Positions 1,115 through 25,665 are shown, counted from the first letter of the stretch. The stretch is 32,000 nucleotides of DNA from Caldimicrobium thiodismutans (GCF_001548275.1 NZ_AP014945.1:720001-752000); one strand, 5' to 3'. Notes: generated by a model not told the origin, from the sequence alone. Numbers and translations are program-made.

Positions 1115-3040
1115 TCAAGAGGATAGGGGTTGACTTTCAGCTTTGAGACTTTGCAGAAAATCAGCCAGACTTACACCCTGCATAACTTCACCTGATCTTT
1201 TCCTTATGCTAAGGCACTGAACTTCCTCTTCTTTATCGCCAAGGATGATCATGTAAGGCACCTTTTCAAGCTGAGCAGCTCTAATTTTGTAATTGATCTT
1301 TTCGCTCCTGAAATCTCTTTCCACTCTGAAACCTGTTTTTTTAAGTTCTTGAGTTACCTTTTCTGCATAGGGGATATTTCTATCTGTCAGGGTTAAGACT
1401 TTGATTTGCACAGGAGCAAGCCAGAAAGGAAAGGCCCCAGCATGATGTTCAATTAGAACGCCAAAAAACCGCTCTAAGGAACCAAGAAGGGCTCTATGAA
1501 TCATGATGGGCCGATGAAATTGATTGTCCTCTCCAACATAAACCAGGTCAAATCTTTCAGGAAGATTAAAATCCACCTGAATAGTTGAACATTGCCAGAA
1601 ACGCCCAAGGACATCTTTTATTTTAAGATCAATCTTTGGACCATAAAAAACTCCCTCTCCAGGGTCTATTTCATAGGCCAGGCCTTTATGCTCTAAGGCC
1701 ATCTTAAGGGCCTCTTCAGCTTTATTCCAAATCGCAGGTTCTCCAACAAATTTCTCTGGCCTGGTTGAGAGATAAATCTGATACTCATTAAACCCAAAAA
1801 GTTTAAGAAAATAAATCACCAAATCTAAAACCTTTATTAATTCTTCTTCCAACTGGTCTTCTCTACAGAAAATGTGAGCATCATCCTGAGTAAAACCTCT
1901 AACCCTTAGGAGCCCGTGCAAAACTCCACTTCTTTCAAAACGATAAACTGTTCCCAGTTCACATAGTCTTAAGGGAAAGTCTCTATAGCTTCTTCTTTTT
2001 TGATTGTAAATATAAATGTGAAAGGGACAATTCATGGGTTTTACTTGATAAGTGCGATTTTCCAGTTCCATAGGTGGAAACATATTTTCCACATAAAAAT
2101 CCAGGTGACCTGAGGTCTTCCAGAGGTCTCGTAAGGCAAGATGGGGGGTATAAACCAGCTGATAATCCCTTTTCAAGTGTTCCTCTTTCCAGAAATCTTC
2201 AATTATTTTCCTCACAAGAGCCCCTTTAGGAAGCCAGATAACAAGGCCGGGCCCGATGTCTTCCTCAATGGTAAAAAGTTCAAGTTCCTTTCCAAGTCTG
2301 CGATGATCCCTTTTTTTGACCTCTTCTAACCAATTGAGATAATCTTTAAGAGCCTCTTCAGTAAAAAAGGCCGTGCCATAGATTCTCCAGAGCATGGGAT
2401 TTTTCTCATCTCCCCTCCAGTAAGCTCCTGCAATTGAGAGAAGTTTTATAGCCTTTACCTGTCCTGTTGAAAGAAGATGCGGGCCTCTGCAAAGGTCAAT
2501 AAAATCCCCTTGAGTATAAATGCTAACTCTTTCATCGGGAAGTTCTGTAATTAATTCAAGCTTAAAGTCTTCATGTATCTGGGAAAAGAGCTTTATAGCC
2601 TCCTCTTTGGAGAGCTCTTTTCTCTCTAAAGGCAGATTTTTTTTAATTAGTTCCTTAATTTTTTTCTCAAGCTTTTTTAAATCCTCCTCTGTAAAAGGTC
2701 TCTCAAAGGCAATATCATAATAGAAACCATCTTCTATAGCTGGACCAATGCCAAGTTTTGCTCCTGGAAACAACTCTTTAACTGCCTGAGCCAGAATATG
2801 AGATGCGGTATGCCTTAAGACCTCTAAGGCCTCAGGGGAGTCCTGATAAAGAGGATCAAGTTGTAGCTCTTGAGCGCTATCAGGCAAAGGTGTATGCCAG
2901 TCATAAATCTCGCTATTGAGTTTAAAAGCCAGGGGTAGCTCTTGAGACTTTTTTAATTTTTTAATTTCAGAAAGAAGAACCTTGAGAGGCTGATTAGGTG
3001 GAAGTTGGAATTCTCCCAGATTTTTGATAAGAATTTTCAA
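1115..3040 (-). CDS. thrS: Threonine--tRNA ligase
   Basis: 641 aa with a TTG start. TGS-like N-terminus, editing-domain HTASHILAQA, class-II core motifs (FPLRLCELGTVYRFERSG, GFTQDDAHIF) and a C-terminal anticodon-binding domain. Confidence 0.95.
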   Translation of the reverse strand: MKILIKNLGEFQLPPNQPLKVLLSEIKKLKKSQELPLAFKLNSEIYDWHTPLPDSAQELQLDPLYQDSPEALEVLRHTASHILAQAVKELFPGAKLGIGPAIEDGFYYDIAFERPFTEEDLKKLEKKIKELIKKNLPLERKELSKEEAIKLFSQIHEDFKLELITELPDERVSIYTQGDFIDLCRGPHLLSTGQVKAIKLLSIAGAYWRGDEKNPMLWRIYGTAFFTEEALKDYLNWLEEVKKRDHRRLGKELELFTIEEDIGPGLVIWLPKGALVRKIIEDFWKEEHLKRDYQLVYTPHLALRDLWKTSGHLDFYVENMFPPMELENRTYQVKPMNCPFHIYIYNQKRRSYRDFPLRLCELGTVYRFERSGVLHGLLRVRGFTQDDAHIFCREDQLEEELIKVLDLVIYFLKLFGFNEYQIYLSTRPEKFVGEPAIWNKAEEALKMALEHKGLAYEIDPGEGVFYGPKIDLKIKDVLGRFWQCSTIQVDFNLPERFDLVYVGEDNQFHRPIMIHRALLGSLERFFGVLIEHHAGAFPFWLAPVQIKVLTLTDRNIPYAEKVTQELKKTGFRVERDFRSEKINYKIRAAQLEKVPYMIILGDKEEEVQCLSIRKRSGEVMQGVSLADFLQSLKAESQPLSS

Positions 3041-3077
3041 TGTTTTCTTTTAAATCTCCTTTAGGTGTATATATTAA

Positions 3078-3152
3078 TGGTAGGCGCGGGCGGGATCGAA
3101 CCGCCGACCTCTTGCGCGTCAAGCAAGCGCTCTCCCACTGAGCTACGCGCCT
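3078..3152 (-). tRNA. tRNA-Val: tRNA-Val (anticodon GAC), with encoded CCA
   Basis: The reverse complement AGGCGCGTAGCTCAGTGGGAGAGCGCTTGCTTGACGCGCAAGAGGTCGGCGGTTCGATCCCGCCCGCGCCTACCA folds by hand as a cloverleaf. It has a 7-bp acceptor stem (AGGCGCG/CGCGCCT), D arm GCTC/GAGC, anticodon stem CTTGC/GCAAG with loop TTGACGC, and T arm GGCGG-TTCGATC-CCGCC. Confidence 0.9.
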
Positions 3153-3203
3153 TTCCTTGATAGCTATTTAAAATAACCAAAAAAATTCCTTTGTCAAGAG
3201 GGT

Positions 3204-3218
3204 GTATGCGTCCATATC
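3204..3218 (-). promoter_or_regulatory. Conserved upstream box (copy A), 6 nt upstream of a TTGACAA -35 element for the tRNA-Val/thrS/infC unit
   Basis: The minus strand reads GATATGGACGCATAC-accctc-TTGACAA, followed by an AT-rich -10 region (TATTTTAAAT) before the tRNA. The same box and spacing occur at 20379-20393 and 21028-21042. Confidence 0.35.
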
Positions 3219-3369
3219 TTTTGAGACTCTATAGGATTTTTCTGCCACCTTTTCTGGTTTTCCACCCTTCTTTTTTTGTGAAATGTAGAAATAATATAAA
3301 AGGATAAACTTGTAATTTGAAAAAAGGTGGATTAAATTTTTTTAAAAATTTGGAGCTAACTTTATTGCA

Positions 3370-3996
3370 ATGACCTCTGTTTTTAACAAATTTTCCAAGG
3401 AATACGATTTATGGTATGAAAAAAATCAAGCGGTCTATATCTCAGAGATTTCAGCCATAAGGCCTCATTTAATAAGTGGCCTATCTCTTGAGGTGGGAGT
3501 TGGCTCAGGAAGATTTGCTGAACCACTAAAAATTGATTTCGGGCTTGACCCATCCTTTGAGATGCTTCGGCTTGCTAAAGATAGAAACATAAAAGTTGCA
3601 AAGGGAATTGCAGAAAAACTACCCTTTAAATCCGAAATTTTTAATGTAGTTTTACTCGTAGTAACCATCTGTTTTTTAGAGGATCCCGAGATGGCTCTAA
3701 AGGAAGTTAAAAGAGTATTACAACCAGGGGGGAGAATAATTGTTGGCTTTGTTGATAAAGATAGTTTTCTTGGAAAGATATATCTTGCTAAAAAAGAAAA
3801 AAGCATCTTTTACCGTGAAGCCAAGTTTTATTCTGTAACTGAAGTAAAGGCCTTACTTGAAAAAACAGGTTTCAAACCTAAGCTTTTTACCCAAACCATT
3901 TTTAACCCTCTTGAAGAGATTACCGAGCCTCAACCTGTAAAAGAAGGCTATGGTGAGGGAGGTTTTGTAGTAATTTCAGCTAAAAAGGTTGAATGA
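3370..3996 (+). CDS. Class I SAM-dependent methyltransferase (Methyltransf_11-like)
   Basis: 208 aa. SAM motif I LEVGVGSGRF, and LQPGGRIIVGF after motif II. Its stop overlaps the next start (ATGA), implying translational coupling to the GT2 gene. Confidence 0.75.
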   Translation: MTSVFNKFSKEYDLWYEKNQAVYISEISAIRPHLISGLSLEVGVGSGRFAEPLKIDFGLDPSFEMLRLAKDRNIKVAKGIAEKLPFKSEIFNVVLLVVTICFLEDPEMALKEVKRVLQPGGRIIVGFVDKDSFLGKIYLAKKEKSIFYREAKFYSVTEVKALLEKTGFKPKLFTQTIFNPLEEITEPQPVKEGYGEGGFVVISAKKVE

Positions 3997-4658
3997 GATC
4001 CTCTCTCTCTGTAATTATCCCTACCCTTAATGAAGAAATTTATCTCCCCCTCGCTTTAAAATCCCTTGCAAATATTGAGCTTGATGAAGTAATAGTAGTT
4101 GATGGAGGAAGCGAAGATAAAACCCCGTTCATAGCTAAATCCCTTGGAGCAAGGGTAATCCAGAGTGAAAAGGGAAGGGGAGTTCAACTCAAAAAAGGAG
4201 TAGAAGTTGCCAAGGGTGATCTCCTTTTCTTTATGCATGCTGATTGCAGAATTCTTGACAGAATTAATTTAAAAGATCTATACAAAAAAGGTATAAAAGC
4301 AGGGTTCCTTAACTTAGTCTATGATGGAAATACCTTTTCCCTTAAAGTTCTTGAAAAATTGATTAATCTTCGAGCAAGGCTTCTTCACTTACCCTATGGA
4401 GATCAGGGGCTTTTTGTAGAAAGGGCTCTCTATGAGAAAACAGGAGGCTTTAAAGAATATCCCTTTCTTGAAGACTTTGACCTTGTTTTACGCTTAAGAA
4501 AAATTTTCCCACCCCAACCCTTGCCTGGTAGGATCCTTGTCTCTTCAAGAAAATTCAAGGCTTCATCACCTTTCTTAATAAGCCTTAAAAATAATTACAT
4601 TCTCTTGCGCTTTTTATTTGGAGCATCTCCTGAAAATTTAAAAAAATTCTATAAATAG
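3993..4658 (+). CDS. Family-2 glycosyltransferase, TIGR04283-like ('transferase 2, rSAM/selenodomain-associated'; arsenosugar-associated)
   Basis: 221 aa. SVIIPTLNEE...VVDGGSEDKT and FMHADC GT-A/GT2 signatures. Family assignment is from memory of the family plus the genomic context next to an ArsS-type gene. Confidence 0.65.
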   Translation: MRSSLSVIIPTLNEEIYLPLALKSLANIELDEVIVVDGGSEDKTPFIAKSLGARVIQSEKGRGVQLKKGVEVAKGDLLFFMHADCRILDRINLKDLYKKGIKAGFLNLVYDGNTFSLKVLEKLINLRARLLHLPYGDQGLFVERALYEKTGGFKEYPFLEDFDLVLRLRKIFPPQPLPGRILVSSRKFKASSPFLISLKNNYILLRFLFGASPENLKKFYK

Positions 4659-4683
4659 CTGAGAATTTTTAAAAATTTTCTAT

Positions 4684-4713
4684 TTGACAAAATTAATTTC
4701 TATAGTTTATACT
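4684..4713 (+). promoter_or_regulatory. Sigma70-like promoter for the rhodanese/arsM-arsS operon
   Basis: TTGACA (4684-4689), an 18-nt spacer, then TATACT (4708-4713). It is followed by the perfect palindrome TGCCTTTAAAAGGCA (4720-4734) and an AGAGGAGG SD before the ATG at 4763. Confidence 0.4.
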
Positions 4714-4762
4714 TTTATGTGCCTTTAAAAGGCAAAATAAAAACTTAAGAGGAGGTGCAGAC

Positions 4763-5200
4763 ATGAGAGGATTTTTAGTCAAGGTCTGGGGAGTTATGCT
4801 TTTAGGGCTTATGGCAATGCTTTTTATGGCCAAAGCCTCCTTTGCAACAAATTTTCTTGAACCGCAGGAATTCAAAAAATGGCTTGAAACAGGTAAGAAG
4901 GTTATCATTGTTGACATCCAGCCCCATGAGGACTTTGTAAAGCACCACTTCAAAGGATCAATTGAAACCAATGCCTTCCCCGCCAATAATGATGACCTTA
5001 AAAAAAGGATTGATAAAGCCCTTCCTATAATTATTAACTCAAATGATCCTGTGGTAATTATTTGCCCCAGGGGAAGAAGTGGTGCTCAGAATACTTATGA
5101 TTATTTGAAATCTAAAGGTGTTCCTGAATCAAGACTTTTTATTCTCAAAGGTGGTATGGCTGGCTGGCCTTATCCAGAGCTTCTTGAGAAAGGAAAGTAA
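4763..5200 (+). CDS. Secreted single-domain rhodanese-like sulfurtransferase
   Basis: 145 aa. N-terminal signal peptide (LLGLMAMLFMAKASFA). Rhodanese fold with VIIVDIQPHEDF and active-site loop CPRGRSG. The stop overlaps the next start (TAATG). Confidence 0.75.
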   Translation: MRGFLVKVWGVMLLGLMAMLFMAKASFATNFLEPQEFKKWLETGKKVIIVDIQPHEDFVKHHFKGSIETNAFPANNDDLKKRIDKALPIIINSNDPVVIICPRGRSGAQNTYDYLKSKGVPESRLFILKGGMAGWPYPELLEKGK

Positions 5201-7266
5201 TGGCTGTAGAATCTATTGTGCTTGAGACTTATAAAGGGGCAGCAAGGTCAAAAGAAGTAAAGCTTTGCTGTCCGGTTTCTTATACTCGTCCTGAACTATT
5301 GAAAATTATTCCTTCAGAGATTCTTGAAAGAGATTATGGGTGTGGTGATCCCACTCAGTATGTCCGAGAGGGAGAAGTGGTTCTTGATCTTGGATCTGGC
5401 TCAGGGAAACATTGCTATATGATAGCTCAAATTATAGGTCCAAAGGGTAAAATTATCGGGGTTGATTTTAATGATGAAATGCTTGCCCTTGCAAGAAAAT
5501 ATCAACAAGAGATAGCCAAAAAAATTGGCTATTTAAATACAGAATTTCGCAAAGCTCGCATCCAGAATCTCAAGCTCGATCTTGAAAAGGTTGATAAATA
5601 CCTTCTTGAAAATCCTATAAAAACCTTTGAAGATTTTATTAAATTTGAAGAATTTATAAAATATCTTGAAGAAAATGAACCCCTTATTCCTGACAATTCT
5701 ATTGATACCGTAGTTTCAAATTGTGTATTAAATCTTGTAAGAGATGAAGATAAAGAAAGGCTTTTTAAAGAGATTTATAGAGTTTTAAAACCAGAGGGTA
5801 GGGCAGTAATAAGTGATATTGTTTCTGATGAGGATGTTCCTGAACATTTAAAAAAGGATCCAGAGCTTTGGTCAGGCTGTATCTCTGGAGCCTTAAGAGA
5901 AGATAAATTCCTTGAGGCTTTTTTGAAGGCTGGCTTTATCAGTATAAAAATTCTTAAATATGAGGAAAAACCCTGGCAGGTAATTGATGGAATAGAATTT
6001 CGCTCTATTACTATTGAAGCTGTAAAGGGAAAAAAAGGGGCTTGTATTGATAAAGGGCATACCGTAATTTTTAAAGGGCCATTTATCAGGGTTGAGGATT
6101 CAGAGGGCCATCTTTTTGAACTTGGAAAAAGGGTTGCAGTTTGTGAGAGAACTTTTGAAAACTTAAAAAAATATGCTTATGATTTTTTCATTTTTATTGA
6201 GCCTGTGAAAAAACTTTCTCCAAGGCCTTTTCCTTGTGGTGAAAAAATTATTTATCGCTCTCCAGGGGTTACCAAGGGTGGAAAATGGGAGACCCATTCT
6301 ACAAAAAACACCTGTTGTGTTCAAGAAGAGTTTAAGCCCTTTTCTGAAAAATTAAAGGAACTGGTGATAATACTCACTAAAAGGGATATAGAAATAATTC
6401 AGGTAAATGTGGGTTATAGGTGTAATGAAAGGTGCCTTCATTGTCACCTTTCAGCTGGCCCAAAGGGCCAGCTTATGAATGATAGAGTCTTATCTGCAGT
6501 CATAGAACTCATAAAGAAACACTCAGGAAAAACCCTTGACATAACCGGTGGCGCACCTGAACTTCACCCTCAAATAGTAGATTTTATTAATGAGGTCAAA
6601 CCTTATACCAGAGAAATTTTGTTTAGAACCAACTTTTCAGCCTTACTTAACAAAGAAAATCTAATTGATTTTCTTGCTAAAAAGAAGGTAATAATTATAG
6701 GTTCCTTTCCAAGCCTTGAAGAACATAAAACAGACTTTTTCAGGGGCAATGGCTTTTTTAAAAAAGCCTTTTTAGCTCTCCAAAAATTAAATGAAGCGGG
6801 CTTTGGGAAAACACTTCCCCTTTATCTCATGATAAATCCTGTAGAACTTTCTCTTACAAGAAAAGAAGAGGAGTTAAGGGATGAATTTATAAATTTTTTT
6901 GAAGAAAAAGGGCTATCCTTTACCGATCTTTTGGTGCTCAATAATTTTCCTCTTGGAAGATTTAAAAGATACCTCCAGAAACAGGGAAAACTTAAAGAGT
7001 ATTATCAACTTCTTTATTCAAATTTTAATCCTGAAACCTTAAATAAGATTATGTGTCTCAAATTAATAAATATTTCTCCGGAGGGATCCCTTTATGATTG
7101 TGATTTTAATCAGGCCTTAAAATTAAAAATTAAAACCCCCAAAAATGTTTTTGAACTTCTTGAAGTTGGGCTTAACTCTCTTGAAGGAAAGCCCATTCAA
7201 ACAGGAGATCATTGTTATGCCTGCACAGCCCTTTATGGAACAGGCTGTTTCGGATCTCTTACATAA
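5200..7266 (+). CDS. arsM/arsS: Fusion protein: ArsM-like As(III) SAM methyltransferase (aa 1-~280) plus ArsS-type radical SAM/Cys-rich protein (aa ~380-688)
   Basis: N-terminal half: KLCCPV (C23/C24), RDYGCG (C48), VLDLGSGSG SAM motif, SNCVLNL (C175) and LWSGCISGAL (C227), matching the four conserved ArsM cysteines. C-terminal half: VNVGYRCNERCLHCH (CX3CX2C radical-SAM cluster) and Cys-rich tail HCYACTALYGTGCFG, typical of the TIGR04167/ArsS family. Confidence 0.8.
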   Translation: MAVESIVLETYKGAARSKEVKLCCPVSYTRPELLKIIPSEILERDYGCGDPTQYVREGEVVLDLGSGSGKHCYMIAQIIGPKGKIIGVDFNDEMLALARKYQQEIAKKIGYLNTEFRKARIQNLKLDLEKVDKYLLENPIKTFEDFIKFEEFIKYLEENEPLIPDNSIDTVVSNCVLNLVRDEDKERLFKEIYRVLKPEGRAVISDIVSDEDVPEHLKKDPELWSGCISGALREDKFLEAFLKAGFISIKILKYEEKPWQVIDGIEFRSITIEAVKGKKGACIDKGHTVIFKGPFIRVEDSEGHLFELGKRVAVCERTFENLKKYAYDFFIFIEPVKKLSPRPFPCGEKIIYRSPGVTKGGKWETHSTKNTCCVQEEFKPFSEKLKELVIILTKRDIEIIQVNVGYRCNERCLHCHLSAGPKGQLMNDRVLSAVIELIKKHSGKTLDITGGAPELHPQIVDFINEVKPYTREILFRTNFSALLNKENLIDFLAKKKVIIIGSFPSLEEHKTDFFRGNGFFKKAFLALQKLNEAGFGKTLPLYLMINPVELSLTRKEEELRDEFINFFEEKGLSFTDLLVLNNFPLGRFKRYLQKQGKLKEYYQLLYSNFNPETLNKIMCLKLINISPEGSLYDCDFNQALKLKIKTPKNVFELLEVGLNSLEGKPIQTGDHCYACTALYGTGCFGSLT

Positions 7267-8884
7267 CTGCACTGAATGTAAGATCTGTATAAAAGCCTGC
7301 CCTTTTCTTGAAAAATATGGCCTTCCTAAGGAGATAATTCTTCAGAGAAAAGAAGAGGTTTTTTATTGCACAAACTGTTCAGCTTGTAGTTTCCTTTGTA
7401 AAGAAGGGTTAGATCCTGCAGAGGCTCTCTATTTTCTGAAAGTTTCCCTTCTTGAAGAAGGTTCAACTCTTGGAGAAAAACTTAAAAAAAGTGCCCTTTC
7501 CTTTACCAAGAAAATTCATTCCTTTCCCATTTCTCACTGGGAAAAGGCTGAAAGAATTTTCTGGCCAGGATGTAGTTTATGGGGAACTTATCCCCATTTA
7601 ATTAAAGAGTTATTAAAAATTTTAAATAAATTTTCTGATAAAAAAATAGTTTTGGTTCTTGATTGTTGTCTTGATCCTCTCTATCAAATCGGAGCTTTGG
7701 GGGAGACTAAAAAGGGCTGGCAGGAGCTAAATCAGAGATTTTTGGATTATGGCATTAATGAAGTAATCGTTGCCTGCACAAATTGTTATAAAATTTTTAA
7801 AAGATTTAGCAATAACCTAAGGGTTTTTCATATTCTTGAGATACTTCCTGAGGAAGAATTTCAAAATACCCTCAATAAGCCTTTTTTCCATCTTCCCTGT
7901 CCAGCCTTTAAGGAAATGGACTTAAAAGAAAAAATTGTAGAAAAATTTAAAGATAAAGTGGACAGGGTTTTACCTTATCCTTCTTGTTGTGGAGCAGGGG
8001 GTGGGGCCTATTTTAGTGAGGAAATTTCTGAAAGCTTCCTTGAAAAAACCCTTAAGCTTGCTGGTAAAAGACCCATTTTAACCTTTTGTTTTGGTTGCAA
8101 AAATCGTTTTCTTAAAAAGGGGGAAAGAGCCCTTCACCTGCTTGAAACCCTGAAAGGGATTAAGCCCCTTGAGAGCCATGTTTCTTCAGCTAAAAAATGG
8201 TTTAATCGCATAAAATTTTCTCTTCAGAGAAAAATTACAAGGCCAAAAAGCTTCTTTTTTCTTTTATTTTTTCTTTTGATGCTTATAAGCTTTTACTTTC
8301 AATGGAGAGGTTTTTTAAAGGCCGAAAATTTTGCTGATACTATTAAAGCCTTTTCTGGACATCCCCTTTCTATAATATTATATTTAATAATATATACAAT
8401 TGCTCCAAGCTTTTTTATTTCAAGTCTTGCTTTAACTTTACTTGCAGGTTTTTTATGGGGTCCTCTCTTTGGAGGGTTAATAGCCTTAACAGGGGCAACC
8501 CTCGGAGCAACCCTTTCTTTTCAACTGGCAAGATATTTTTTTAGAGAGTCCCTAAAAACCCGCTTAGGTTTAGAAAAATGGAAATACTTTGATGAAATTA
8601 CAAAAAAACACGGCTGGAAAGCGGTTGCCTTTGTAAGACTTTTTCCCCTTTTTCCCTTTCCCGTGGTTAACTATCTTTTTGGATTAACCTCAATTGATCT
8701 GAAAACCTATGTTATTTGCACCTTTTTCTTTATGGCTCCTGCAGGTTTTGCCTATACAGGCCTTGGCTTCTCCTTAAAAAGCATTCTCTTTGAAGGAAAG
8801 TTCTTTCCCTTATTTCTTGTTCTTGCCTTTCTTTTTACTCTCACTATTCTTTTAAGATATCTTTCCAAAAAATGGAAACTTTAG
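7217..8884 (+). CDS. Fusion protein: 2x[4Fe-4S]/CCG-domain (HdrD/GlpC-like) oxidoreductase plus C-terminal TVP38/TMEM64 (DedA-superfamily) membrane domain
   Basis: Start chosen at ATG 7217 (AGGAG 9 nt upstream); the ORF also opens at 7145. Motifs: CTECKICIKACP and CTNCSACSFLC ferredoxin-type, WPGCSL...LDCCLDP and LPCP...PSCCGAGGG CCG-type. About 5 TM helices follow, with LLAGFLWGPLFGGLIALTGATLGATLSFQLARYF (SNARE_assoc/TVP38 signature). Confidence 0.7.
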   Translation: MPAQPFMEQAVSDLLHNCTECKICIKACPFLEKYGLPKEIILQRKEEVFYCTNCSACSFLCKEGLDPAEALYFLKVSLLEEGSTLGEKLKKSALSFTKKIHSFPISHWEKAERIFWPGCSLWGTYPHLIKELLKILNKFSDKKIVLVLDCCLDPLYQIGALGETKKGWQELNQRFLDYGINEVIVACTNCYKIFKRFSNNLRVFHILEILPEEEFQNTLNKPFFHLPCPAFKEMDLKEKIVEKFKDKVDRVLPYPSCCGAGGGAYFSEEISESFLEKTLKLAGKRPILTFCFGCKNRFLKKGERALHLLETLKGIKPLESHVSSAKKWFNRIKFSLQRKITRPKSFFFLLFFLLMLISFYFQWRGFLKAENFADTIKAFSGHPLSIILYLIIYTIAPSFFISSLALTLLAGFLWGPLFGGLIALTGATLGATLSFQLARYFFRESLKTRLGLEKWKYFDEITKKHGWKAVAFVRLFPLFPFPVVNYLFGLTSIDLKTYVICTFFFMAPAGFAYTGLGFSLKSILFEGKFFPLFLVLAFLFTLTILLRYLSKKWKL

Positions 8885-9498
8885 AGGCCTTAGGCCTTTT
8901 CTTCAAAATCCCTGAAAAGGGAAAAGTAAAAACAAGGCTTGCAAAGGATGTGGGGGAAGAAAGAGCTCTTGAAATATATAAAGAATTACTCTGGAAAACT
9001 GTAAAAATTTCTGAGCATCTCTTTCTTCAAAGAAGAATAAAGCTTTTTGGTTTTTACGAGGGTGAAAGATTAGCCCGGATAAAAAAATTTTTTAACTTAA
9101 ATTTTAACTGGAATTTTCTTCCCCAGAAGGGTAAAGGTCTCGGGGAGAGACTGAAGAGGGCAGGGGAGTTGCTATTAAATTTTGGTTTTGAAAGAATAGT
9201 CTTTATAGGTGCTGATTGTCCTTTTCTATCCCTGGATTATCTCAAATCTGCCTTTGAGAGACTCAAGGATTATCCCGTTGTTTTTGGACCTTCCGAAGAT
9301 GGAGGATATGTCCTGTTGGGATTTAATTTTCTTTTTAAAAATAGACTTTTTCTTTTATTTGATTATTTACCTTTTGAAACAACGAAACTTTTAGATAAAA
9401 CATTAGAGAGACTGAAACCTGAAGATTTTTCTCTTCTTCCAACCCTTTTTGATATAGACACCTTTGAAGATTTTCAAAAATATTTAAAACTGACTTGA
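8872..9498 (+). CDS. DUF2064/TIGR04282-like nucleotidyl/glycosyl-transferase ('transferase 1, rSAM/selenodomain-associated')
   Basis: 208 aa. FFKIPEKGKVKTRLA, GKGLGERL, FIGADCPFL and GPSEDGGYVLLGF match the DUF2064 pattern. Overlaps the upstream gene by 13 nt. Confidence 0.7.
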   Translation: METLEALGLFFKIPEKGKVKTRLAKDVGEERALEIYKELLWKTVKISEHLFLQRRIKLFGFYEGERLARIKKFFNLNFNWNFLPQKGKGLGERLKRAGELLLNFGFERIVFIGADCPFLSLDYLKSAFERLKDYPVVFGPSEDGGYVLLGFNFLFKNRLFLLFDYLPFETTKLLDKTLERLKPEDFSLLPTLFDIDTFEDFQKYLKLT

Positions 9499-9554: not shown

Positions 9555-10154
9555 ATGTGCACAAAAGTTGGTGGCCTTGCTCCAGATTTTGAGGCTGGTG
9601 CCTATTTTCCCAATGGGGAGATCAAGAAGATTAAGCTTTCTGATTACAGGGGGAAATGGGTTGTCCTTCTCTTTTATCCTGCTGACTTTACCTTTGTTTG
9701 CCCTACAGAGCTTGTTGATGTAGCTGAGAAATATGAGGAACTTAAAAATCTCAATGTGGAGGTTATTGGAATTAGTATTGATACGGTTTTTGTTCACAAG
9801 GTCTGGCAAGAAGTTGAGCTTTCTAAGATGATTAGTGGAGGGGTTCCCTATCCCCTTGCCTCAGACCTTGGGGGAAAGATTGGTCAGCTCTATGGAGTCT
9901 ATGATGAAGCCCTTGGCCTTGATCTAAGAGGCACTTTTATTATAGATCCTGATGGGGTTCTTCAATCTGTAGAGATAAACAATGCCCCTGTAGGAAGAAA
10001 TGCAGATGAATTGGTAAGAAAGATTAAAGCCTTCCAGCATGTAAGAGCAACAGGTGGAAAGGAAGTATGCCCTGCAAAATGGGAACCAGGAAAAACCACT
10101 TTAAAGCCTGGAATTGAGCTTGCTGGAAAGGTTTACGAAGTCTATAAAAAATAA
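9555..10154 (+). CDS. Typical 2-Cys peroxiredoxin (AhpC/Prx1 family)
   Basis: 199 aa. APDFEA...YPADFTFVCPTE peroxidatic Cys motif, and resolving Cys in GKEVCPAKW. AAAGGAGGTGG SD. Confidence 0.9.
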   Translation: MCTKVGGLAPDFEAGAYFPNGEIKKIKLSDYRGKWVVLLFYPADFTFVCPTELVDVAEKYEELKNLNVEVIGISIDTVFVHKVWQEVELSKMISGGVPYPLASDLGGKIGQLYGVYDEALGLDLRGTFIIDPDGVLQSVEINNAPVGRNADELVRKIKAFQHVRATGGKEVCPAKWEPGKTTLKPGIELAGKVYEVYKK

Positions 10155-10170
10155 TTTTAAATTTATCTCC

Positions 10171-10200
10171 GGGGGGTTAAATGCCCCCTTCTTTTTATTT
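10171..10200 (+). terminator. Rho-independent terminator after the peroxiredoxin gene
   Basis: GGGGG(G)-ttaaatg-CCCCC hairpin followed by TTCTTTTTATTT. Confidence 0.6.
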
Positions 10201-10724: not shown

Positions 10725-11594
10725 ATGAGACTTAAAATAACCTTTTGTCCTGTAGATAAAGATCAGATTATTCTTCCCATTCAATATAATGAAATTTTAC
10801 AGGGATTTATTTATAATTCTCTTGAAAGGGGGCTTGCAGAGAGAATTCACAATTTTGGATTTGAAGACCCTAAAACCAAGAGAAAATTCAAACTTTTTAC
10901 TTTTTCAAGGCTTTTAAGCTTACAAAAGCCCCTTATTAAAAATGGGAATATAGTATTTTCAGGAAGTTTCACTTTTTTTGTAGCCTCTCCTGTAAAGGAA
11001 TTTATTCAATCCCTTGCTCAGAGTATTTTAACAAGAGAAGTTTTAACCCTTGGGAAGGTGAGGGTGCTTTTGCAGTCTGTTGAGGTTATGAGTCCTCCCA
11101 GATATCAGGAAAAAATTTATGTGAGGACTCTTTCTCCTATTACTGTTTATAGCACTTTCAGGAAACCAGATGGAAAAAAGATAACTTATTATTATAGTCC
11201 TTTTGAAGAGGACTTTAGGAAGCAAATTTTAGAAAATTTAAACAAAAAACTTAGATCTCTTGGGAGGGAGGCGGATTTAGATGGCTCAATAAGACCCTAT
11301 AAAGTGAGTTCAAGGAATCAGAGAATTATTTTATATAAAAATATGGTTATTAAGGCTTGGGATGGGGTTTTTGAGTTATGTCTTCCGAGTTTTGAGCCTA
11401 CCTATGAGGAATTGAAACACCTATATCTTTATACAACTTCTTTGCAAAAAACTCGTTTTGAGCCTACCTATGAGGAATTGAAACGGAATGCCTCAATATC
11501 AATTTTTTCTCTTTTTAAAAGTTTTGAGCCTACCTATGAGGAATTGAAACTCGCATCCTCTAAAATATGTAAAACACACCCTAAAATGTTTTGA
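10725..11594 (+). CDS. cas6: CRISPR endoribonuclease Cas6, 3'-truncated (probable pseudogene). The Cas6-like part is 10725-11388; the rest of the ORF is read-through into CRISPR repeats and spacers.
   Basis: MRLKITFCPVDKDQIILPIQYNEILQGFIYN is a typical Cas6 N-terminus. VIKAWDGVFELCLP aligns to the strand just before the Gly-rich loop of Cas6 (compare P. furiosus ...[34 protein letters not shown]). The loop itself is absent, and CRISPR repeat 1 starts at 11389. Confidence 0.7.
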   Translation: MRLKITFCPVDKDQIILPIQYNEILQGFIYNSLERGLAERIHNFGFEDPKTKRKFKLFTFSRLLSLQKPLIKNGNIVFSGSFTFFVASPVKEFIQSLAQSILTREVLTLGKVRVLLQSVEVMSPPRYQEKIYVRTLSPITVYSTFRKPDGKKITYYYSPFEEDFRKQILENLNKKLRSLGREADLDGSIRPYKVSSRNQRIILYKNMVIKAWDGVFELCLPSFEPTYEELKHLYLYTTSLQKTRFEPTYEELKRNASISIFSLFKSFEPTYEELKLASSKICKTHPKMF

Positions 11595-12296
11595 GCCTAC
11601 CTATGAGGAATTGAAACCTCTATATTGAAAATTAAATTAATAGCAGTAAAAACAAGTTTTGAGCCTACCTATGAGGAATTGAAACATCTCTTTTAAGAGG
11701 TTCTGTCTTTCAGCTTCAAGCTGTTTTGAGCCTACCTATGAGGAATTGAAACGCTATAACTCCCGCAAGCCTTTGAGAAAATGGCTCAAGGTTTTGAGCC
11801 TACCTATGAGGAATTGAAACTCCTTTTTACCAGGGGCTCCTTCTCATCAAGCTCTACGTTTTGAGCCTACCTATGAGGAATTGAAACAGTAAACTATTTT
11901 ATCAGAAGATTTTTCTAGCTTTCGTTTTGAGCCTACCTATGAGGAATTGAAACTAATCCTCCTTTTAGATATACATCAGCGATAAATTTTTTTTTGAGCC
12001 TACCTATGAGGAATTGAAACCCAGATTAAGAGATGTTGGCATTGATATTTCCAAAATTTTTTTGAGCCTACCTATGAGGAATTGAAACAAGATATAATGA
12101 AGGTAAAGGATATTTATTCATTTTTGGAGGTTTTAAGCCTATCTATAAGGAGTTGAAACGAGATTTTCAAGATTTTCAAGATGTTCAGTGTTTTCAGGAT
12201 TTTAGGTTTTGAGCCCACCTATATGGGGTTAAATTATGATTTTTCTGGCTATGACTATTTATTTTTGTTTTTAGCCTACCTATAAGGGGTTGAAAT
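11389..12296 (+). CRISPR. CRISPR array 1: 14 copies of the 30-bp repeat GTTTTGAGCCTACCTATGAGGAATTGAAAC (11 intact or 1 mismatch, last 3 degenerate)
   Basis: Repeat starts: 11389, 11455, 11521, 11588, 11656, 11723, 11791, 11858, 11924, 11991 (G1T), 12059 (G1T), 12130 (4 mismatches), 12206 (degenerate), 12267 (degenerate). Spacers are 36,36,37,38,37,38,37,36,37,38,41,46,31 bp. The ATTGAAAC 3' end (the usual 8-nt crRNA handle) and the degenerate distal repeats both indicate + orientation. Confidence 0.92.
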
Positions 12297-13048: not shown

Positions 13049-13210
13049 GTTTTGGGCCTACCTATGAGGAATTGAAACCTGAAGATGATTTTGAGCGTAA
13101 CAGGAAATTTCTTGTTTTGAGCCTACCTATGAGGAATTGAAACATTGATATCTTCCCATATTTCAGGAAAGTCTTCCTCGGTTTTAAGCCTATCTATAAA
13201 GAAAGGGTGG
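13049..13210 (+). CRISPR. CRISPR array 2 (remnant): 2 near-perfect repeats plus 1 truncated degenerate repeat
   Basis: Repeats at 13049 (A7G), 13114 (perfect) and 13181 (GTTTTAAGCCTATCTATAA..., identical over 19 nt to degenerate repeat 12 of array 1). Spacers are 35 and 37 bp. An AT-rich, leader-like stretch lies at 12974-13048. Confidence 0.75.
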
Positions 13211-14651: not shown

Positions 14652-14910
14652 CTCTCTTCCTCTCCTTTACCCATTGTATGAAAGGCTTGTTCAGTCTGTA
14701 AAAACTTTTAATCAAAAGCGCATCATCCTTACTCACCACTATTTTATCACCTTTCTTGAAAATATAGTAATCCCCCTTTTCTGTTCTTTCAACATAGATT
14801 TCATCCGGGCTCTGAACGATCTTTTTTGCTTCTCTGTAGTATTCTTTCGGTGAGCTAAATATGGAATTTTGACTTATAGTATTCTGATATGTAGTAGAGG
14901 AGTTTCGAGC
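14632..14910 (-). pseudogene. Start-less ORF remnant (93 codons) whose 5' end is cut off by an orphan CRISPR repeat
   Basis: Hand translation: ...SSPKEYYREAKKIVQSPDEIYVERTEKGDYYIFKKGDKIVVSKDDALLIKSFYRLNKPFIQWVKERKRGGFIRIL*. There is no ATG, only a late GTG/TTG. The upstream in-frame stop lies inside the repeat at 14911-14913. Confidence 0.3.
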
Positions 14911-14993
14911 TTACCTATGAGGAATTGAAACTTCTAGCAGTAACAGTCAGAATAATCAACATTTTAAACATACCTATGAAGAGGATTTGAAAG
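14902..14993 (+). CRISPR. Orphan mini-array: near-perfect repeat, 29-bp spacer, degenerate repeat
   Basis: 14902-14931 is GTTTCGAGCTTACCTATGAGGAATTGAAAC (28/30). The spacer is TTCTAGCAGTAACAGTCAGAATAATCAAC. 14961-14993 is ATTTTAAACATACCTATGAAGAGGATTTGAAAG (degenerate), and it overlaps the last codons and stop of the minus-strand GGDEF/EAL gene. Confidence 0.5.
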
Positions 14994-22133: not shown

Positions 22134-23234
22134 TTGCAAATCTTTGTTGAAAAATCTGCCCTATCCTATCAATTAACTCAAGAAATTTTGACAAGAGTCT
22201 CCTCCTTTGAAATAATCCCTTCGTATGAGGATTTTCTCTGGGAATTTAGAACTGAAGAAGATCTTATTGCTCTTGGAAAGAAGAGGCTTTTTATTATGGA
22301 ATACAAGGGAGATTTTGTTAAACCCTGTCCAGGAACCAAAAATTATATCTGTTGTGGTTATGAGATCTTTCATATTGGAGAGGGATGTCCCCTTGATTGC
22401 TCCTACTGTATCCTGCAAATGTATTTAAATAGACCAGGGCTAAAGATTTGGGGAAATCTCTGGGAAGATGGATTAGAAACCCTCAAAGAGTATTTAAAAA
22501 TACAAGAAAATACAGGTAGAATTATAAGGATAGGAACAGGAGAGTTTACGGATAGTCTCGCTTTAGAGGGAATAACTCATATATCTGAAAAACTCATTCA
22601 TTTCTGGAATGAAAAAAAACCCAGAGCTGTCCTTGAATTGAAAACTAAGGTGGCTCTCAGTGATGATTTTTTTAAGAAAATTAAAGGAAATCCCAGGGTG
22701 ATATTGGCCTGGTCAGTTAACACAGAAAGGGTTATTCAAACTGAAGAAAAGTCAACTGCACCTCTTTCTGCAAGGCTTGAAAGTGCTAAAAAAGCAATTG
22801 ATAAGGGTTTTACTGTAGCCTTTCACTTTGACCCAATCATATATTATTCAGGAGCAGAACTTGAATATCCTGAGGTATTGAAAAAAATTTTAAAAATTAT
22901 CCCTCATGAAAAAATTGCCTGGATCAGCTTAGGAACCTTAAGATTTCCAAAGGTCTTAAAAAAAGTAGCTGTAGAAAGATTTCCTGAAACTAAAATTTAT
23001 TCCTATGAGTTCATTGAGGGGCTTGATCAAAAAAAGAGATATTTTGTTGATTTAAGAAAAAGGCTCTATAAATCTTTATATAACCTCATAAAAGAGACCC
23101 AGACTGAGATTACTTATTATTTTTGTATGGAGAGTGAAAGAATTTGGGAAGAGGTCCTTGGAATAAAGATAAGTAAAAATGAGGGCTTAGTGGATCGCCT
23201 TGACAAAGTGGCCAAAAGGTTATGCTCATTATAG
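22134..23234 (+). CDS. Spore-photoproduct-lyase-family radical SAM protein (SplB-like)
   Basis: 366 aa with a TTG start. FVKPCPGTKNYICCGY and GCPLDCSYCILQMY (CX3CX2C) as in SP lyase-like DNA repair enzymes. Confidence 0.7.
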   Translation: MQIFVEKSALSYQLTQEILTRVSSFEIIPSYEDFLWEFRTEEDLIALGKKRLFIMEYKGDFVKPCPGTKNYICCGYEIFHIGEGCPLDCSYCILQMYLNRPGLKIWGNLWEDGLETLKEYLKIQENTGRIIRIGTGEFTDSLALEGITHISEKLIHFWNEKKPRAVLELKTKVALSDDFFKKIKGNPRVILAWSVNTERVIQTEEKSTAPLSARLESAKKAIDKGFTVAFHFDPIIYYSGAELEYPEVLKKILKIIPHEKIAWISLGTLRFPKVLKKVAVERFPETKIYSYEFIEGLDQKKRYFVDLRKRLYKSLYNLIKETQTEITYYFCMESERIWEEVLGIKISKNEGLVDRLDKVAKRLCSL

Positions 23235-24469
23235 TATTATTTCTTTTAATAAATATAGCTGGGTGCACTCCTATCTCCAAGGGAACCAAAGAATTTACCT
23301 GTGAGTCCTGTCATGGAGAAGCTCCTTTAAAACTTTCTCATTCTCAACTTTCATGTAAGGACTGTCATGCTGGATCATCTCCTGCAAAGAATAAAGAACT
23401 TGCCCATAAAAACTTAAAAAAAGATTTATCTCCAGAAGAAGTTGAAATCCTCTGTAACCGGTGTCACTCTAAGGAGGTTATGGCTTTTCAAAAGAGTTAT
23501 CATTATACATATGCAGGGGAGTTAAAAGGCATCCTTAGGGGATTTAGTCTAAATTTAAAGATTGAAAACATAAAGAGTCTTCTGCCTTTAGAGGGTTCTT
23601 TTGAAACTAAGGAAGGTCTTTTTGTAGATTTTTTGAAAAGACGGTGTCTAACTTGCCATATCTATAGCAAAGGAGAAAAATATTCAAGAACTCACAGAGC
23701 AAAAGGGTGTTTTAGTTGCCATAGCCCTCATAAACTTGGAAGACCAGGGGATCACGAATGTCTTAGCTGCCATTATGGGACCAAAATTGGGTGGGATTAT
23801 TATGGATACTCGCCTCATCCCTGGTTTGTAGATTATCGTTCCCCTTTTATCCAGGGAAAAAATCCAGAAAGACCTTATGGAATTGAAGCCTACAGATTAA
23901 GGGAGGATATCCATAAAAGTAAAGGTCTTGCCTGTGTAGATTGTCACTCTAAGCAAGAAATTATGTATGGAGAAAAGAAAATTTCCTGTCTTAGCTGTCA
24001 TAAAAACTTTAAAGAAAAAAACTTTCATCAGAAAAAAATTTTACAACAGGTAAGATGTGAAGTCTGCCATGCAAGTTTTATAAGTATGGATGATGTAAAG
24101 GTTTGCTATCTTGAAACAAATCCCAATCTGGAAGAGTGGATTGATCTTTCCATTCAGGAGTCTTCAGAAATTGAGGAAATAATAGGAAAATTTATGGAGG
24201 GTAAAAGGGTTTCCATAAAAATGAAAGATAAATTTACTGATAAAGAAAAAGAAGGCCTCTGGCTTTGCACCCTCGGAAATCGGACCTTTGATAAAATTTT
24301 TCTTGGCAAGGATAAAGAAGGAAGACTTTGCCTCCTGAGAAAAGAGAAACTAACCTTAATTCATGAAAATATAGAAATTACTGGAATCTTTGAAACCTGT
24401 AAAACTTCACACTCCATAGGCAAGGGAGATATTAACAGGGCTTTTAGTGTTTTGAAGGAATTAAAATGA
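23222..24469 (+). CDS. Multiheme c-type cytochrome lipoprotein (9 CXXCH motifs)
   Basis: 415 aa. Lipobox LINIAGC. Heme motifs: CESCH, CKDCH, CNRCH, CLTCH, CFSCH, CLSCH, CVDCH, CLSCH, CEVCH. Confidence 0.8.
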   Translation: MLIIVLFLLINIAGCTPISKGTKEFTCESCHGEAPLKLSHSQLSCKDCHAGSSPAKNKELAHKNLKKDLSPEEVEILCNRCHSKEVMAFQKSYHYTYAGELKGILRGFSLNLKIENIKSLLPLEGSFETKEGLFVDFLKRRCLTCHIYSKGEKYSRTHRAKGCFSCHSPHKLGRPGDHECLSCHYGTKIGWDYYGYSPHPWFVDYRSPFIQGKNPERPYGIEAYRLREDIHKSKGLACVDCHSKQEIMYGEKKISCLSCHKNFKEKNFHQKKILQQVRCEVCHASFISMDDVKVCYLETNPNLEEWIDLSIQESSEIEEIIGKFMEGKRVSIKMKDKFTDKEKEGLWLCTLGNRTFDKIFLGKDKEGRLCLLRKEKLTLIHENIEITGIFETCKTSHSIGKGDINRAFSVLKELK

Positions 24470-25665
24470 AATATCCCCCTGTTATCCTGAATACCAATGG
24501 GTTGAAAAACTACATCCAGGGAAAACTCTGGTTTACCTATAAAGATCTTGACTCCTTTGAGAAGATTAAAGATTCCATTGAACCAGGGAGCCTTGTATCA
24601 CTTTATTCTCAGCACAAGCATTTTCTTGGGCAGGGATATTTTAATTCTCATTCCTATTATAGCCTGAAACTTCTTACCAAAAAAGAAATCTCCATTGATA
24701 TATCCTTTTTTAAAGAAACATTCAAATTAGCCCTTGAATTCAGAGAGAGATTTTTTCCAGGTGAGTCATCCTTCAGGCTTATTCATTCAGAGGGGGATCA
24801 TCTCCCCGGGCTAATTATAGATCTCTTTGATAAAGTTGGAGTAATCCAAATCCATACCCTTGGAATGGAAAGACTAAAATCCATCATAATAGATGCCTTG
24901 CTTCAAATCAGACCCCTTGAGAGTATTGTTTTAAAAAATGACTTTGATAAAAGAAAAGAAGAAAAATTACCTCTTTATGTAGATTTTTATTTAAAGGAGC
25001 CTCAGGACCCCTATCCTATTGAGATGGACGGTATAAAATTTCTTATTCCAATTATCAAAGGGCAAAAAACAGGTTTTTTCCTTGACCAGAGGGAAAACCG
25101 CAGGTTTTTAAGCAGGATTTCCCATGGCCTTATAATTATGGATGGCTTTGCTTATATTGGTGGTTTTTCCTTCTATGCCCTAAAAGGGGGAGCTAAAAGG
25201 GTCTATCTCCTTGAAAGATCAGGTTATGCCCTTGATATTGCCCTTGAAATCGCCAAATTAAATGGATGGAAAGATCAGGTTGTGCCAGTTGAGGGCGATG
25301 TTTTTCAACTTCTTAAAAATCCTGTAGCAAAAGCAAACTTGTTAATTCTTGATCCGCCAGCCTTTATTAAATCCAAAAAAGATTATTTTCAAGGCTATAA
25401 AAAATACAAGGAACTGTATTCCCTTGGTCTCCAATATTTTAAAGCACAGAATGGATTTCTTTTTCTTTTTTCATGTTCTCATTTTTTAAAACTTCAGGAA
25501 TTACTGCTTTTTTTAAAAGAATCTCTTTCTAAATGCAATTTTTCAGCCAAGATCTTTCAAGTATTTCATCAAAGTCCAGATCATCCTATTAATCCTTGTG
25601 TTGAGGAAACGGAATATCTAAAGGGGGTAGCCCTTGAGTTCTCTCATCTTCATGCCCCTCTATAG
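24466..25665 (+). CDS. rlmI: PUA-domain class I SAM-dependent rRNA (cytosine-C5) methyltransferase, RlmI-like
   Basis: 399 aa. RLIHSEGDHLPGLIIDLF, QKTGFFLDQREN, and ILDPPAF motif IV region. Confidence 0.8.
   Translation: MKYPPVILNTNGLKNYIQGKLWFTYKDLDSFEKIKDSIEPGSLVSLYSQHKHFLGQGYFNSHSYYSLKLLTKKEISIDISFFKETFKLALEFRERFFPGESSFRLIHSEGDHLPGLIIDLFDKVGVIQIHTLGMERLKSIIIDALLQIRPLESIVLKNDFDKRKEEKLPLYVDFYLKEPQDPYPIEMDGIKFLIPIIKGQKTGFFLDQRENRRFLSRISHGLIIMDGFAYIGGFSFYALKGGAKRVYLLERSGYALDIALEIAKLNGWKDQVVPVEGDVFQLLKNPVAKANLLILDPPAFIKSKKDYFQGYKKYKELYSLGLQYFKAQNGFLFLFSCSHFLKLQELLLFLKESLSKCNFSAKIFQVFHQSPDHPINPCVEETEYLKGVALEFSHLHAPL

Follow-up and report, generated by a model that had tools for sequence, protein, structure and literature searches.

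A cluster of seven co-oriented genes in Caldimicrobium thiodismutans probably encodes an arsenosugar-type organoarsenical pathway, in which a fused ArsM-ArsS protein would form 5'-deoxy-5'-dimethylarsinoyl-adenosine (DDMAA) and the neighboring proteins would catalyze subsequent tailoring, redox, and membrane steps. The DNA analyzed is a stretch of 32,000 nucleotides (NZ_AP014945.1:720001-752000), called here the window, to which all coordinates of the cluster refer. The cluster encodes an S-adenosylmethionine (SAM) methyltransferase (MT1), a GT2 glycosyltransferase, an exported rhodanese, the ArsM-ArsS fusion, a protein having an Fe-S/CCG module joined to a VTT membrane domain, a DUF2064 protein, and a peroxiredoxin. 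C. thiodismutans, which was isolated from a hot spring, is a thermophilic and strictly anaerobic autotroph that disproportionates sulfur. An earlier reading made from the DNA alone (the sequence-only reading) had taken the genome to be that of a low-GC anaerobe, and indeed the GC content is ~0.35 and the closest named proteins are those of C. thiodismutans. WP_068513456.1 of that bacterium has the same sequence as the GT2 protein, and the ArsM-ArsS and VTT proteins fall into 90%-identity clusters shared with THC_0727 (named ArsS) and THC_0728. RefSeq already labels three of the cluster genes "arsenosugar biosynthesis". As the three signature families bear arsenosugar names in RefSeq, this is not a new kind of system and its novelty is lowered. 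It is, however, a distinct variant: a fused ArsM-ArsS of an unusual ArsM subtype, a membrane protein in which a heterodisulfide reductase (Hdr)-like module is joined to the VTT domain, and a secreted rhodanese, all in a strict anaerobe. The literature searched contained nothing tying Caldimicrobium to arsenosugars and no arsenic speciation data for the genus.

The assignment begins with the ArsM-ArsS fusion. The ArsS half scored 302.1 bits with TIGR04167 (cutoff 300), residues 392-687 aligning with positions 2-303 of the 303-position model, and its Cys-rich C-terminal domain matched Pfam DUF3641 (123 bits). The CX3CX2C motif and all 21 columns invariant in a 40-member family alignment are present, and Cys occupies the position (GTGCFGSL) that is Sec in the selenoprotein members of the family. 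Previous studies have shown that ArsS adenosylates dimethylarsenite (DMAs(III)) to give DDMAA (PMC13598754) and that the arsM and arsS genes of Synechocystis are transcribed together (bioRxiv 10.1101/2022.09.23.509062).

The ArsM half is less orthodox. Its best match was NF040538, the arsinothricin-type ArsM (349.6 bits, cutoff 500), followed by NF008823, the generic ArsM (192.6 bits, cutoff 263), and NF038099, the cyanobacterial arsenosugar ArsM (147.4 bits, cutoff 400). A ~25-residue insert breaks the alignments to ordinary ArsM proteins, whereas NF040538 spans the insert and aligns in a single stretch. Membership in the arsinothricin ArsM family was considered and not assigned, given the score of 349.6 against a cutoff of 500. 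The ArsM half also matched Pfam Methyltransf_31 (103 bits), and a phmmer search of the PDB returned arsenic methyltransferases exclusively. Upon alignment with CmArsM (PDB 4FS8 family) the YGCG, SNCV, and SGC segments coincide with the As(III)-binding residues C72, C174, and C224, and a CC pair at residues 23/24 lies 3-4 residues away from the C44 position. The sequence-only description of this protein as an ArsM-ArsS fusion is therefore upheld by model score for ArsS; for ArsM it fails on the model cutoffs and is sustained by the As(III)-binding cysteines and the PDB matches. Note that three database proteins of 724-728 residues (P0052, P0055, and P0056) have the same Pfam make-up. The one scanned, P0055, has a different radical-SAM domain N-terminal to the same insert-bearing ArsM subtype; this domain gave a weak match to an Rv1681-like family (105 bits) and lacks DUF3641. 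These proteins may be a third type of radical-SAM/ArsM pairing.

The genes surrounding the fusion are conserved with it. Relatives at 74-77% identity (L085 and L086) keep all seven genes, although the left flank is thrS in L086 and TetR/RND genes in L085. Relatives at 61-66% identity keep a five-gene core consisting of GT2, rhodanese, ArsM-ArsS, Fe-S/CCG-VTT, and DUF2064. A Thermodesulfovibrionales genome at 55% identity has the order YedF-YdjY-GT2-fusion-Fe-S/VTT-DUF2064, in which YedF and YdjY replace the rhodanese. MT1 is absent from relatives more distant than 74-77%, and a peroxiredoxin gene follows DUF2064 in the 74-77% relatives only. The GT2 gene stays with the genes downstream of it in every relative examined, whatever the flanks. 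Retention of the same order in relatives at 55-77% identity having differing flanks argues that the arrangement is not due to chance, and the co-conservation anticipated by the sequence-only reading holds for the five-gene core, which recurs despite the changed flanks.

ArsS itself is very widespread, with matches in at least 600 species-representative genomes. In the best 80 of these loci, a tblastn survey with several seeds for each family looked for neighbors up to 6 kb from ArsS; because the bit thresholds were fixed, the counts are lower bounds. A subset of 50 loci having at least 18 kb of context was counted separately. DUF2064 was found near ArsS in 32 of the 80 loci (21 of the 50), GT2 in 31 (20 of the 50), VTT in 21 (13 of the 50), and ArsM in 17 (10 of the 50), with 25 loci (17 of the 50) having none of these four. 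Among the best 80 loci the full combination of this cluster was found only in Caldimicrobium. A DUF3047 gene, absent from the window, recurs near ArsS in six of the 80 loci (e.g., L091 9734-10456 and several proteobacterial loci), and an open reading frame (ORF) of L059 (10858-12360) has both GT2 and DUF3047 Pfam matches, which suggests fusion of DUF3047 to a TIGR04283-type GT2.

Protein fusions found elsewhere tie the families together. The ArsM-ArsS order is common to ~50 database clusters and the reverse order, ArsS-ArsM with an ordinary ArsM, is found in P0125, P0136, and P0158. P0190 combines GT2, DUF2064, and ArsS in one protein and P0293 combines Fe-S/CCG-VTT with DUF2064. Jointly, these fusions link all five families of the core (ArsM, ArsS, GT2, DUF2064, and Fe-S/CCG-VTT).

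The two transferases of the core scored above their family cutoffs. GT2 scored 207.8 bits with TIGR04283 (cutoff 182) and has all of the family motifs (DGGSxD, GRxxQ, LxFlHaD, GDQ..F, mED, and SxRRW), with HxD replacing DxD. The DUF2064 protein scored 157.6 bits with TIGR04282 (cutoff 134), resembles CofC weakly, and has a PDB homologue (3CGX) described as a "putative nucleotide-diphospho-sugar transferase". Its motifs are PxxGxvKTRL, iGxDcP, and DGGY. Owing to this PxxGxvKTRL/GxDxP/DGGY pattern and the CofC/MobA-like similarity, the TIGR04282 protein looks like a nucleotidyltransferase. In contrast to these two, MT1 reached no curated family; it matched Pfam Methyltransf_11 (68 bits) and resembled the DVU_1556 and UbiE families only weakly. 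MT1 contains a single cysteine and thus is not ArsM-like. A similar methyltransferase (73 bits) adjoins ArsS in L025.

By motif, profile, and fold the N-terminal half of the Fe-S/CCG-VTT protein is an HdrC/HdrB-like module with a predicted disulfide reductase activity. More than 190 homologues have this architecture, and in a 32-member alignment the invariant cysteines form two ferredoxin motifs (CxxCxxCxxxC) and two CCG motifs (C...CC...CxxC). The profile matched HdrB chains (2.5e-7 to 1e-5) and HdrC chains (2e-4 to 7e-3) in the PDB. An AlphaFold (AF2) model (pLDDT 86, pTM 0.77) gave HdrB (E=1e-4) and LutA (TM-score 0.65) as its top Foldseek matches. The module lies outside NF045663 (110.5 bits, cutoff 530). 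The VTT half scored 82.6 with Pfam VTT_dom PF09335 (threshold 33.9) and in BLASTP comparisons with E. coli matched YdjX (30% identity, 6e-18) and YdjZ (31%, 2e-15), which places it in the DedA COG0398 (TVP38/YdjX) subfamily.

A different reductase is found in aerobes. In 19 of the 80 best loci, those of aerobic bacteria, a class-I flavoprotein disulfide reductase with GGDCLNYGCVPSK is fused C-terminally to the VTT partner (e.g., L023 10930-13086; also L037, L051, L055, L057, L075, L077, and L078). Strains of genera such as Pseudomonas, Microbulbifer, and Caldimonas (L023, L057, L075, and L078) have an ArsS-VTT-flavoprotein-GT2-DUF2064-ArsM cluster. A MerA-like metal reductase was considered for this aerobic partner and rejected: it has a CxxxxC disulfide and a His-Glu-type C-terminus, lacks the C-terminal Cys pair, and falls under the MerA cutoff. 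The exchange of the Hdr-like module of anaerobes for the flavoprotein of aerobes is a non-homologous swap. That two unrelated disulfide reductase modules share the same membrane partner and neighborhood argues for the reduction of disulfides or persulfides as one of the functions of the system. A survey of DedA proteins lists COG0398-flavoprotein fusions as of unknown function and ties the subfamily to aerobic metabolism; it makes no mention of ArsS, and the link of the fusion to ArsS/TIGR04282/TIGR04283 neighborhoods is absent there (PMC10127716).

The rhodanese (Pfam Rhodanese, 50.4 bits) is likely periplasmic. All eight cluster-linked homologues aligned have an N-terminal hydrophobic leader, most of which end in small residues (SFA/LAA/MAA), and the active-site loop CxRxxxGA is invariant in the eight. 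The sequence-only reading had called a secreted rhodanese, a GT2 and a DUF2064 transferase of the TIGR04283 and TIGR04282 types, and an Fe-S/CCG-TVP38 fusion. The rhodanese domain with its signal-like leader, the two profile scores, and the cysteine alignment together with the VTT_dom match bear out these descriptions.

In related clusters the rhodanese keeps company with sulfur and selenium carriers. Dissulfurispira thermophila has the order ArsS-YedF-rhodanese-GT2-Fe-S/VTT-DUF2064-DsrE-like with a TsuA-like transporter gene ahead and no ArsM within 7 kb, and another related locus has in addition an SclA-like cysteine desulfurase and a Se/S-carrier protein. The YedF proteins of these clusters are members of TIGR03527 (195-204 bits, cutoff 110). 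Among the loci compared, such carriers (YedF and others) were found in anaerobic lineages only.

Two further loci concern the VTT and rhodanese partners. In E. coli K-12 (L093, NC_000913.3 1833401-1840774) the order is ydjX(DedA)-ydjY-ydjZ(DedA)-ynjA(AhpD-like)-ynjBCD(ABC transporter)-ynjE(rhodanese), without ArsS. This ydjX-ynjE order mirrors the VTT, YdjY, and rhodanese set that adjoins ArsS in L004 and L092. The combination of VTT, YdjY, and rhodanese may therefore be a module of its own, which suggests that an older sulfur-related module was recruited by ArsS clusters. L092 is an otherwise similar cluster having the order rhodanese-YdjY-GT2-rSAM-[Fe-S/CCG-VTT-DUF2064]; its radical-SAM protein (2485-3483) is ~20% identical to ArsS and gave no DUF3641 match.

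The features of the cluster are listed in Table 1. The MT1 and GT2 genes share an ATGA overlap (3993-3996), read from the sequence and indicative of translational coupling, and the rhodanese and ArsM-ArsS genes meet at TAATG (5198-5202). The Fe-S/VTT gene overlaps DUF2064 by 13 nt (8872-8884) and, given an ATG start at 7217, overlaps ArsM-ArsS by 50 nt (7217-7266). This ATG has AGGAG ~10 nt upstream and yields a protein of 555 residues, the same number as in P0269, its 100%-identical match in the database. The start of the longer ORF at 7145 (121-nt overlap) was dropped in favor of 7217, which has the ribosome binding site and the 555-residue homologue length. All of the start/stop overlaps given in the sequence-only reading (ATGA, TAATG, and 13-50 nt) can be read directly in the DNA. 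That reading had also placed seven same-strand genes between 3370 and 9498; the genes are co-oriented as stated, but this span contains six of them, the peroxiredoxin gene (9555-10154) being just outside.

Table 1 Features of the C. thiodismutans cluster (window coordinates)
Feature	Position	Strand	Remarks
Class I SAM methyltransferase (MT1)	3370-3996	+	208 aa; from the ORF listing
GT2 glycosyltransferase, TIGR04283 family	3993-4658	+	221 aa
Promoter-like site	4684-4713	+	In the gap 5' of the rhodanese gene; consensus match alone
Single-domain rhodanese, N-terminal signal-like segment	4763-5200	+	145 aa
ArsM-ArsS fusion	5200-7266	+	688 aa; ArsM ~residues 15-335, ArsS residues 392-688
HdrC/HdrB-like Fe-S module + VTT/TVP38 membrane domain (DedA COG0398-type)	7217-8884 (longer ORF from 7145)	+	Fe-S module, residues 1 to ~320
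DUF2064/TIGR04282 protein, nucleotidyltransferase-like (CofC/MobA-like) features	8872-9498	+	208 aa
PrxU-type 2-Cys peroxiredoxin (Cys form), peripheral member	9555-10154	+	199 aa
Terminator-like hairpin closing the unit	10171-10189	+	GGGGGG...CCCCC stem, then T run

The 104-nt gap between GT2 and the rhodanese gene (4659-4762) contains the top sigma-70-like match of the region (TTGACA-18-TATACT, 11/12 matches), and the rhodanese gene has a strong Shine-Dalgarno sequence (GAGGAGG). The sole strong terminator-like hairpin of the region is that located 3' of the peroxiredoxin gene, and no terminator was found 5' of that gene. The promoter-like site and the position of the hairpin fit a division into two transcription units, of which the second may extend through the peroxiredoxin gene. 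The peroxiredoxin scored 306.7 bits with NF040737 (cutoff 270), a family in which some members have selenocysteine, and is the Cys form of PrxU because its peroxidatic residue is Cys (FVCPTE). Hidden selenocysteine genes were considered and rejected: no ORF has an in-frame TGA, and the Sec positions of ArsS and the peroxiredoxin are Cys. At the Rfam gathering threshold only tRNA and CRISPR repeats were detected, with no riboswitch or other RNA family inside the cluster.

Based on the enzymology of homologues, the ArsM domain would use SAM to methylate As(III) to dimethylarsenite, and the ArsS domain would add the 5'-deoxyadenosyl radical of another SAM to the arsenic atom to give DDMAA in a redox-neutral reaction. 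Fusion of the two domains would plausibly channel the toxic and labile trivalent intermediate and prevent its escape. The simplest reading of the motifs of the TIGR04282 and TIGR04283 proteins is an activate-then-transfer pair that would convert the arsenoribose to a riboside or conjugate. The remaining roles are speculations from fold. The VTT domain could transfer a substrate or product across the membrane or inside it, and the Hdr-like module could reduce a disulfide or persulfide, perhaps to recycle cysteine pairs oxidized by arsenic methylation or perhaps to hold arsenic trivalent or free it from sulfur. The exported rhodanese might handle sulfur-bound species outside the cytoplasm, such as thioarsenate (a thiosulfate analogue). 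MT1 and the peroxiredoxin would be lineage-specific accessories, and candidate end products are oxo- and thio-arsenosugars and lipid conjugates.

Several observations weigh against this pathway. The margin of the ArsS match is narrow (2 bits above the TIGR04167 cutoff), and the ArsM half is under every curated ArsM cutoff and hence by threshold belongs to no named ArsM family. The roles given to the TIGR04282, TIGR04283, VTT, Hdr-like, and rhodanese proteins come only from fold, motif, and neighborhood. Profile scans of the window genes found no classical ars genes (arsR, acr3, or arsC), and the cluster has no adenine-removing gene (nucleosidase or phosphorylase). Moreover, the YedF, SclA-like desulfurase, and Se/S carrier found in ArsM-less clusters may reflect a sulfur or selenium role outside the scheme, and the caution of the sequence-only reading, which allowed for sulfur or selenium involvement and left the product undefined, was justified by these carriers. 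It seems quite unlikely that a chalcogen (Se or S) is the physiological substrate, such that an ArsS-type enzyme together with VTT, reductase, rhodanese, and YedF proteins would build and traffic a Se- or S-ribosyl compound, with the ArsM-like domain methylating that element. That scheme would accommodate the YedF (TIGR03527), SclA-like desulfurase, Se_S_carrier, DsrE-like protein, and TsuA-like transporter of related clusters, two of which are carrier-bearing and have no ArsM within 7 kb, as well as the ArsS family members that are selenoproteins (PMC13188914) and the disulfide/persulfide type of the reductase modules. However, the Caldimicrobium ArsS is covalently joined to a domain with the As(III)-binding cysteines of crystallized ArsM conserved, ArsM-ArsS fusions are known in both orders, and 17 of the 80 best loci have ArsM no farther than 6 kb from ArsS. 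L072, where ArsM adjoins ArsS, has an ArsS that shares 60% identity with that of the ArsM-less Dissulfurispira cluster, and thus the ArsM-less state alone is no proof of another substrate. Arsenic adenosylation is also the sole biochemistry known for the ArsS family.

A device for arsenic detoxification and export, in which arsenic is methylated, adenosylated, and expelled and the transferases and VTT-reductase serve export or housekeeping with no defined arsenosugar or arsenolipid, is unlikely although it overlaps the arsenosugar-type pathway rather than excluding it. Synechocystis arsM mutants are slightly arsenite-sensitive whereas arsS mutants are not, which puts the genes within arsenic handling (bioRxiv 10.1101/2022.09.23.509062), VTT/DedA proteins are transporter-like (PMC10127716), and homologues come from hot-spring metagenomes and metagenome-assembled genomes. 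Set against this, two dedicated families of transferases are conserved alongside ArsS, and P0190 even joins them to it in one protein, which argues for further chemistry on the ribose. The 104-nt gap with its strong promoter-like site, and the loss of MT1 and peroxiredoxin in more distant relatives, might instead be taken to mean chance neighbors or two operons without relation to each other, one with MT1 and GT2 and the other running from the rhodanese gene to DUF2064. This is very improbable, since GT2 accompanies the second set of genes in all relatives examined and is fused to DUF2064 and ArsS in P0190. For the five-gene core such a reading is already contradicted, and it is possible for MT1 and the peroxiredoxin only.

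Arsenic ribosides and lipids occur throughout aquatic food webs. To our knowledge, the biochemically defined part of arsenosugar synthesis is limited to its first two steps, and to a cyanobacterium; likewise, we know of DMAs(III) adenosylation activity as established only for the cyanobacterial enzyme. The arsenosugar-type pathway argued for here suggests that arsenoribose chemistry is not limited to oxygenic phototrophs. The cluster of a culturable anaerobe together with the fusions found elsewhere provides a shortlist for the later steps: TIGR04282, TIGR04283, and the VTT-disulfide reductase. It also puts the enigmatic COG0398 DedA-oxidoreductase fusions into a setting that can be tested and hints that, in sulfidic hot springs, arsenic is connected with sulfur/selenium trafficking. 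We tentatively raise the possibility that strict anaerobes produce an organoarsenical that is linked to ribose, and perhaps thiolated or bound to lipid, by means of two previously unrecognized parts: a DedA/VTT-disulfide reductase (Hdr-like in anaerobes and a flavoprotein in aerobes) and an extracytoplasmic rhodanese/YedF sulfur relay. If this is true, the "missing" late steps of arsenosugar/arsenolipid synthesis would be located in this cluster and the COG0398 DedA-reductase fusions would gain a first physiological role.

The sequences flanking the cluster are of other kinds. Directly upstream (1115-3152, minus strand) are thrS (TIGR00418, 740 bits, TTG start) and tRNA-Val(GAC). Downstream (10725-12296) are a Cas6 gene (TIGR01877, 95.8 bits) and then a CRISPR array of ~14 repeats of the CRISPR-DR2 type (GTTTTGAGCCTACCTATGAGGAATTGAAAC), placed by Rfam in minus-strand orientation. 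The Cas6 ORF is open until a stop at 11594 and runs into the first three repeats (11389-11550). Farther on there are orphan repeats (13049-13143 and 14902-14931). Downstream of the peroxiredoxin gene, L085 and L086 have one or two small ORFs and then a phosphoglycerate mutase gene. No Cas6 gene was called there, and thus the Cas6/CRISPR segment looks like an insertion. Farther along the window (22134-25665) are three overlapping and apparently coupled genes encoding a spore-photoproduct-lyase-like radical-SAM protein (22134-23234), a multihaem cytochrome c (23222-24469), and a PUA-domain SAM methyltransferase (24466-25665).

Among the closest known systems is that of Synechocystis sp. PCC 6803, the arsM-arsS arsenosugar genes of which were reportedly described by Xue et al. 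in 2019, and ArsS is said, in papers citing the work, to have been studied in vitro by Cheng et al. in 2021. The same two families are present in Caldimicrobium and would carry out the same SAM-dependent methylation of As(III) followed by radical 5'-deoxyadenosyl transfer to dimethylarsenite. However, the two co-transcribed genes of the oxygenic phototroph are a single 688-residue polypeptide in the strictly anaerobic thermophile, and the Caldimicrobium ArsM is of a subtype with an extra insert that scores poorly with the cyanobacterial model (NF038099, 147 bits, cutoff 400). Caldimicrobium also adds GT2, DUF2064, Hdr-like-VTT, and secreted rhodanese proteins, none of which adjoins ArsS in the cyanobacterial loci sampled by tblastn. 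The trio called "rSAM/selenodomain-associated" in NCBIfam/TIGRFAMs (TIGR04167, TIGR04282, and TIGR04283) is present in full, with all three members above cutoff and adjacent. The VTT-disulfide reductase protein, the exported rhodanese or YedF, and the ArsM fusion lie outside the definition of the trio, yet recur here and in related loci.

The arsQML arsinothricin cluster of Burkholderia gladioli (PMC8552651) likewise pairs a radical-SAM enzyme that forms a C-As bond with ArsM, and NF040538, the model of the arsinothricin ArsM, is the best one for the Caldimicrobium ArsM half, although at 349.6 it falls below the cutoff of 500. In B. gladioli, however, the partner is ArsL, which transfers a 3-amino-3-carboxypropyl group, whereas in Caldimicrobium it is ArsS (5'-deoxyadenosyl transfer), and the Caldimicrobium cluster lacks the ArsQ permease. 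The Fe-S module matches HdrBC/HdrD and the LutA-type CCG proteins in profile and fold, having a dicluster ferredoxin part and two CCG cysteine motifs, but is fused to a VTT membrane domain instead of having HdrA or HdrE as a partner. Its VTT domain belongs to the same subfamily as that of the COG0398 DedA-pyridine nucleotide disulfide oxidoreductase fusions (PMC10127716), in which the reductase is a C-terminal flavoprotein rather than an N-terminal Fe-S Hdr-like module. Across these fusions, the ArsS clusters, and the E. coli ydjXYZ-ynjABCD-ynjE locus, VTT is repeatedly associated with a disulfide reductase, YdjY, or a rhodanese.

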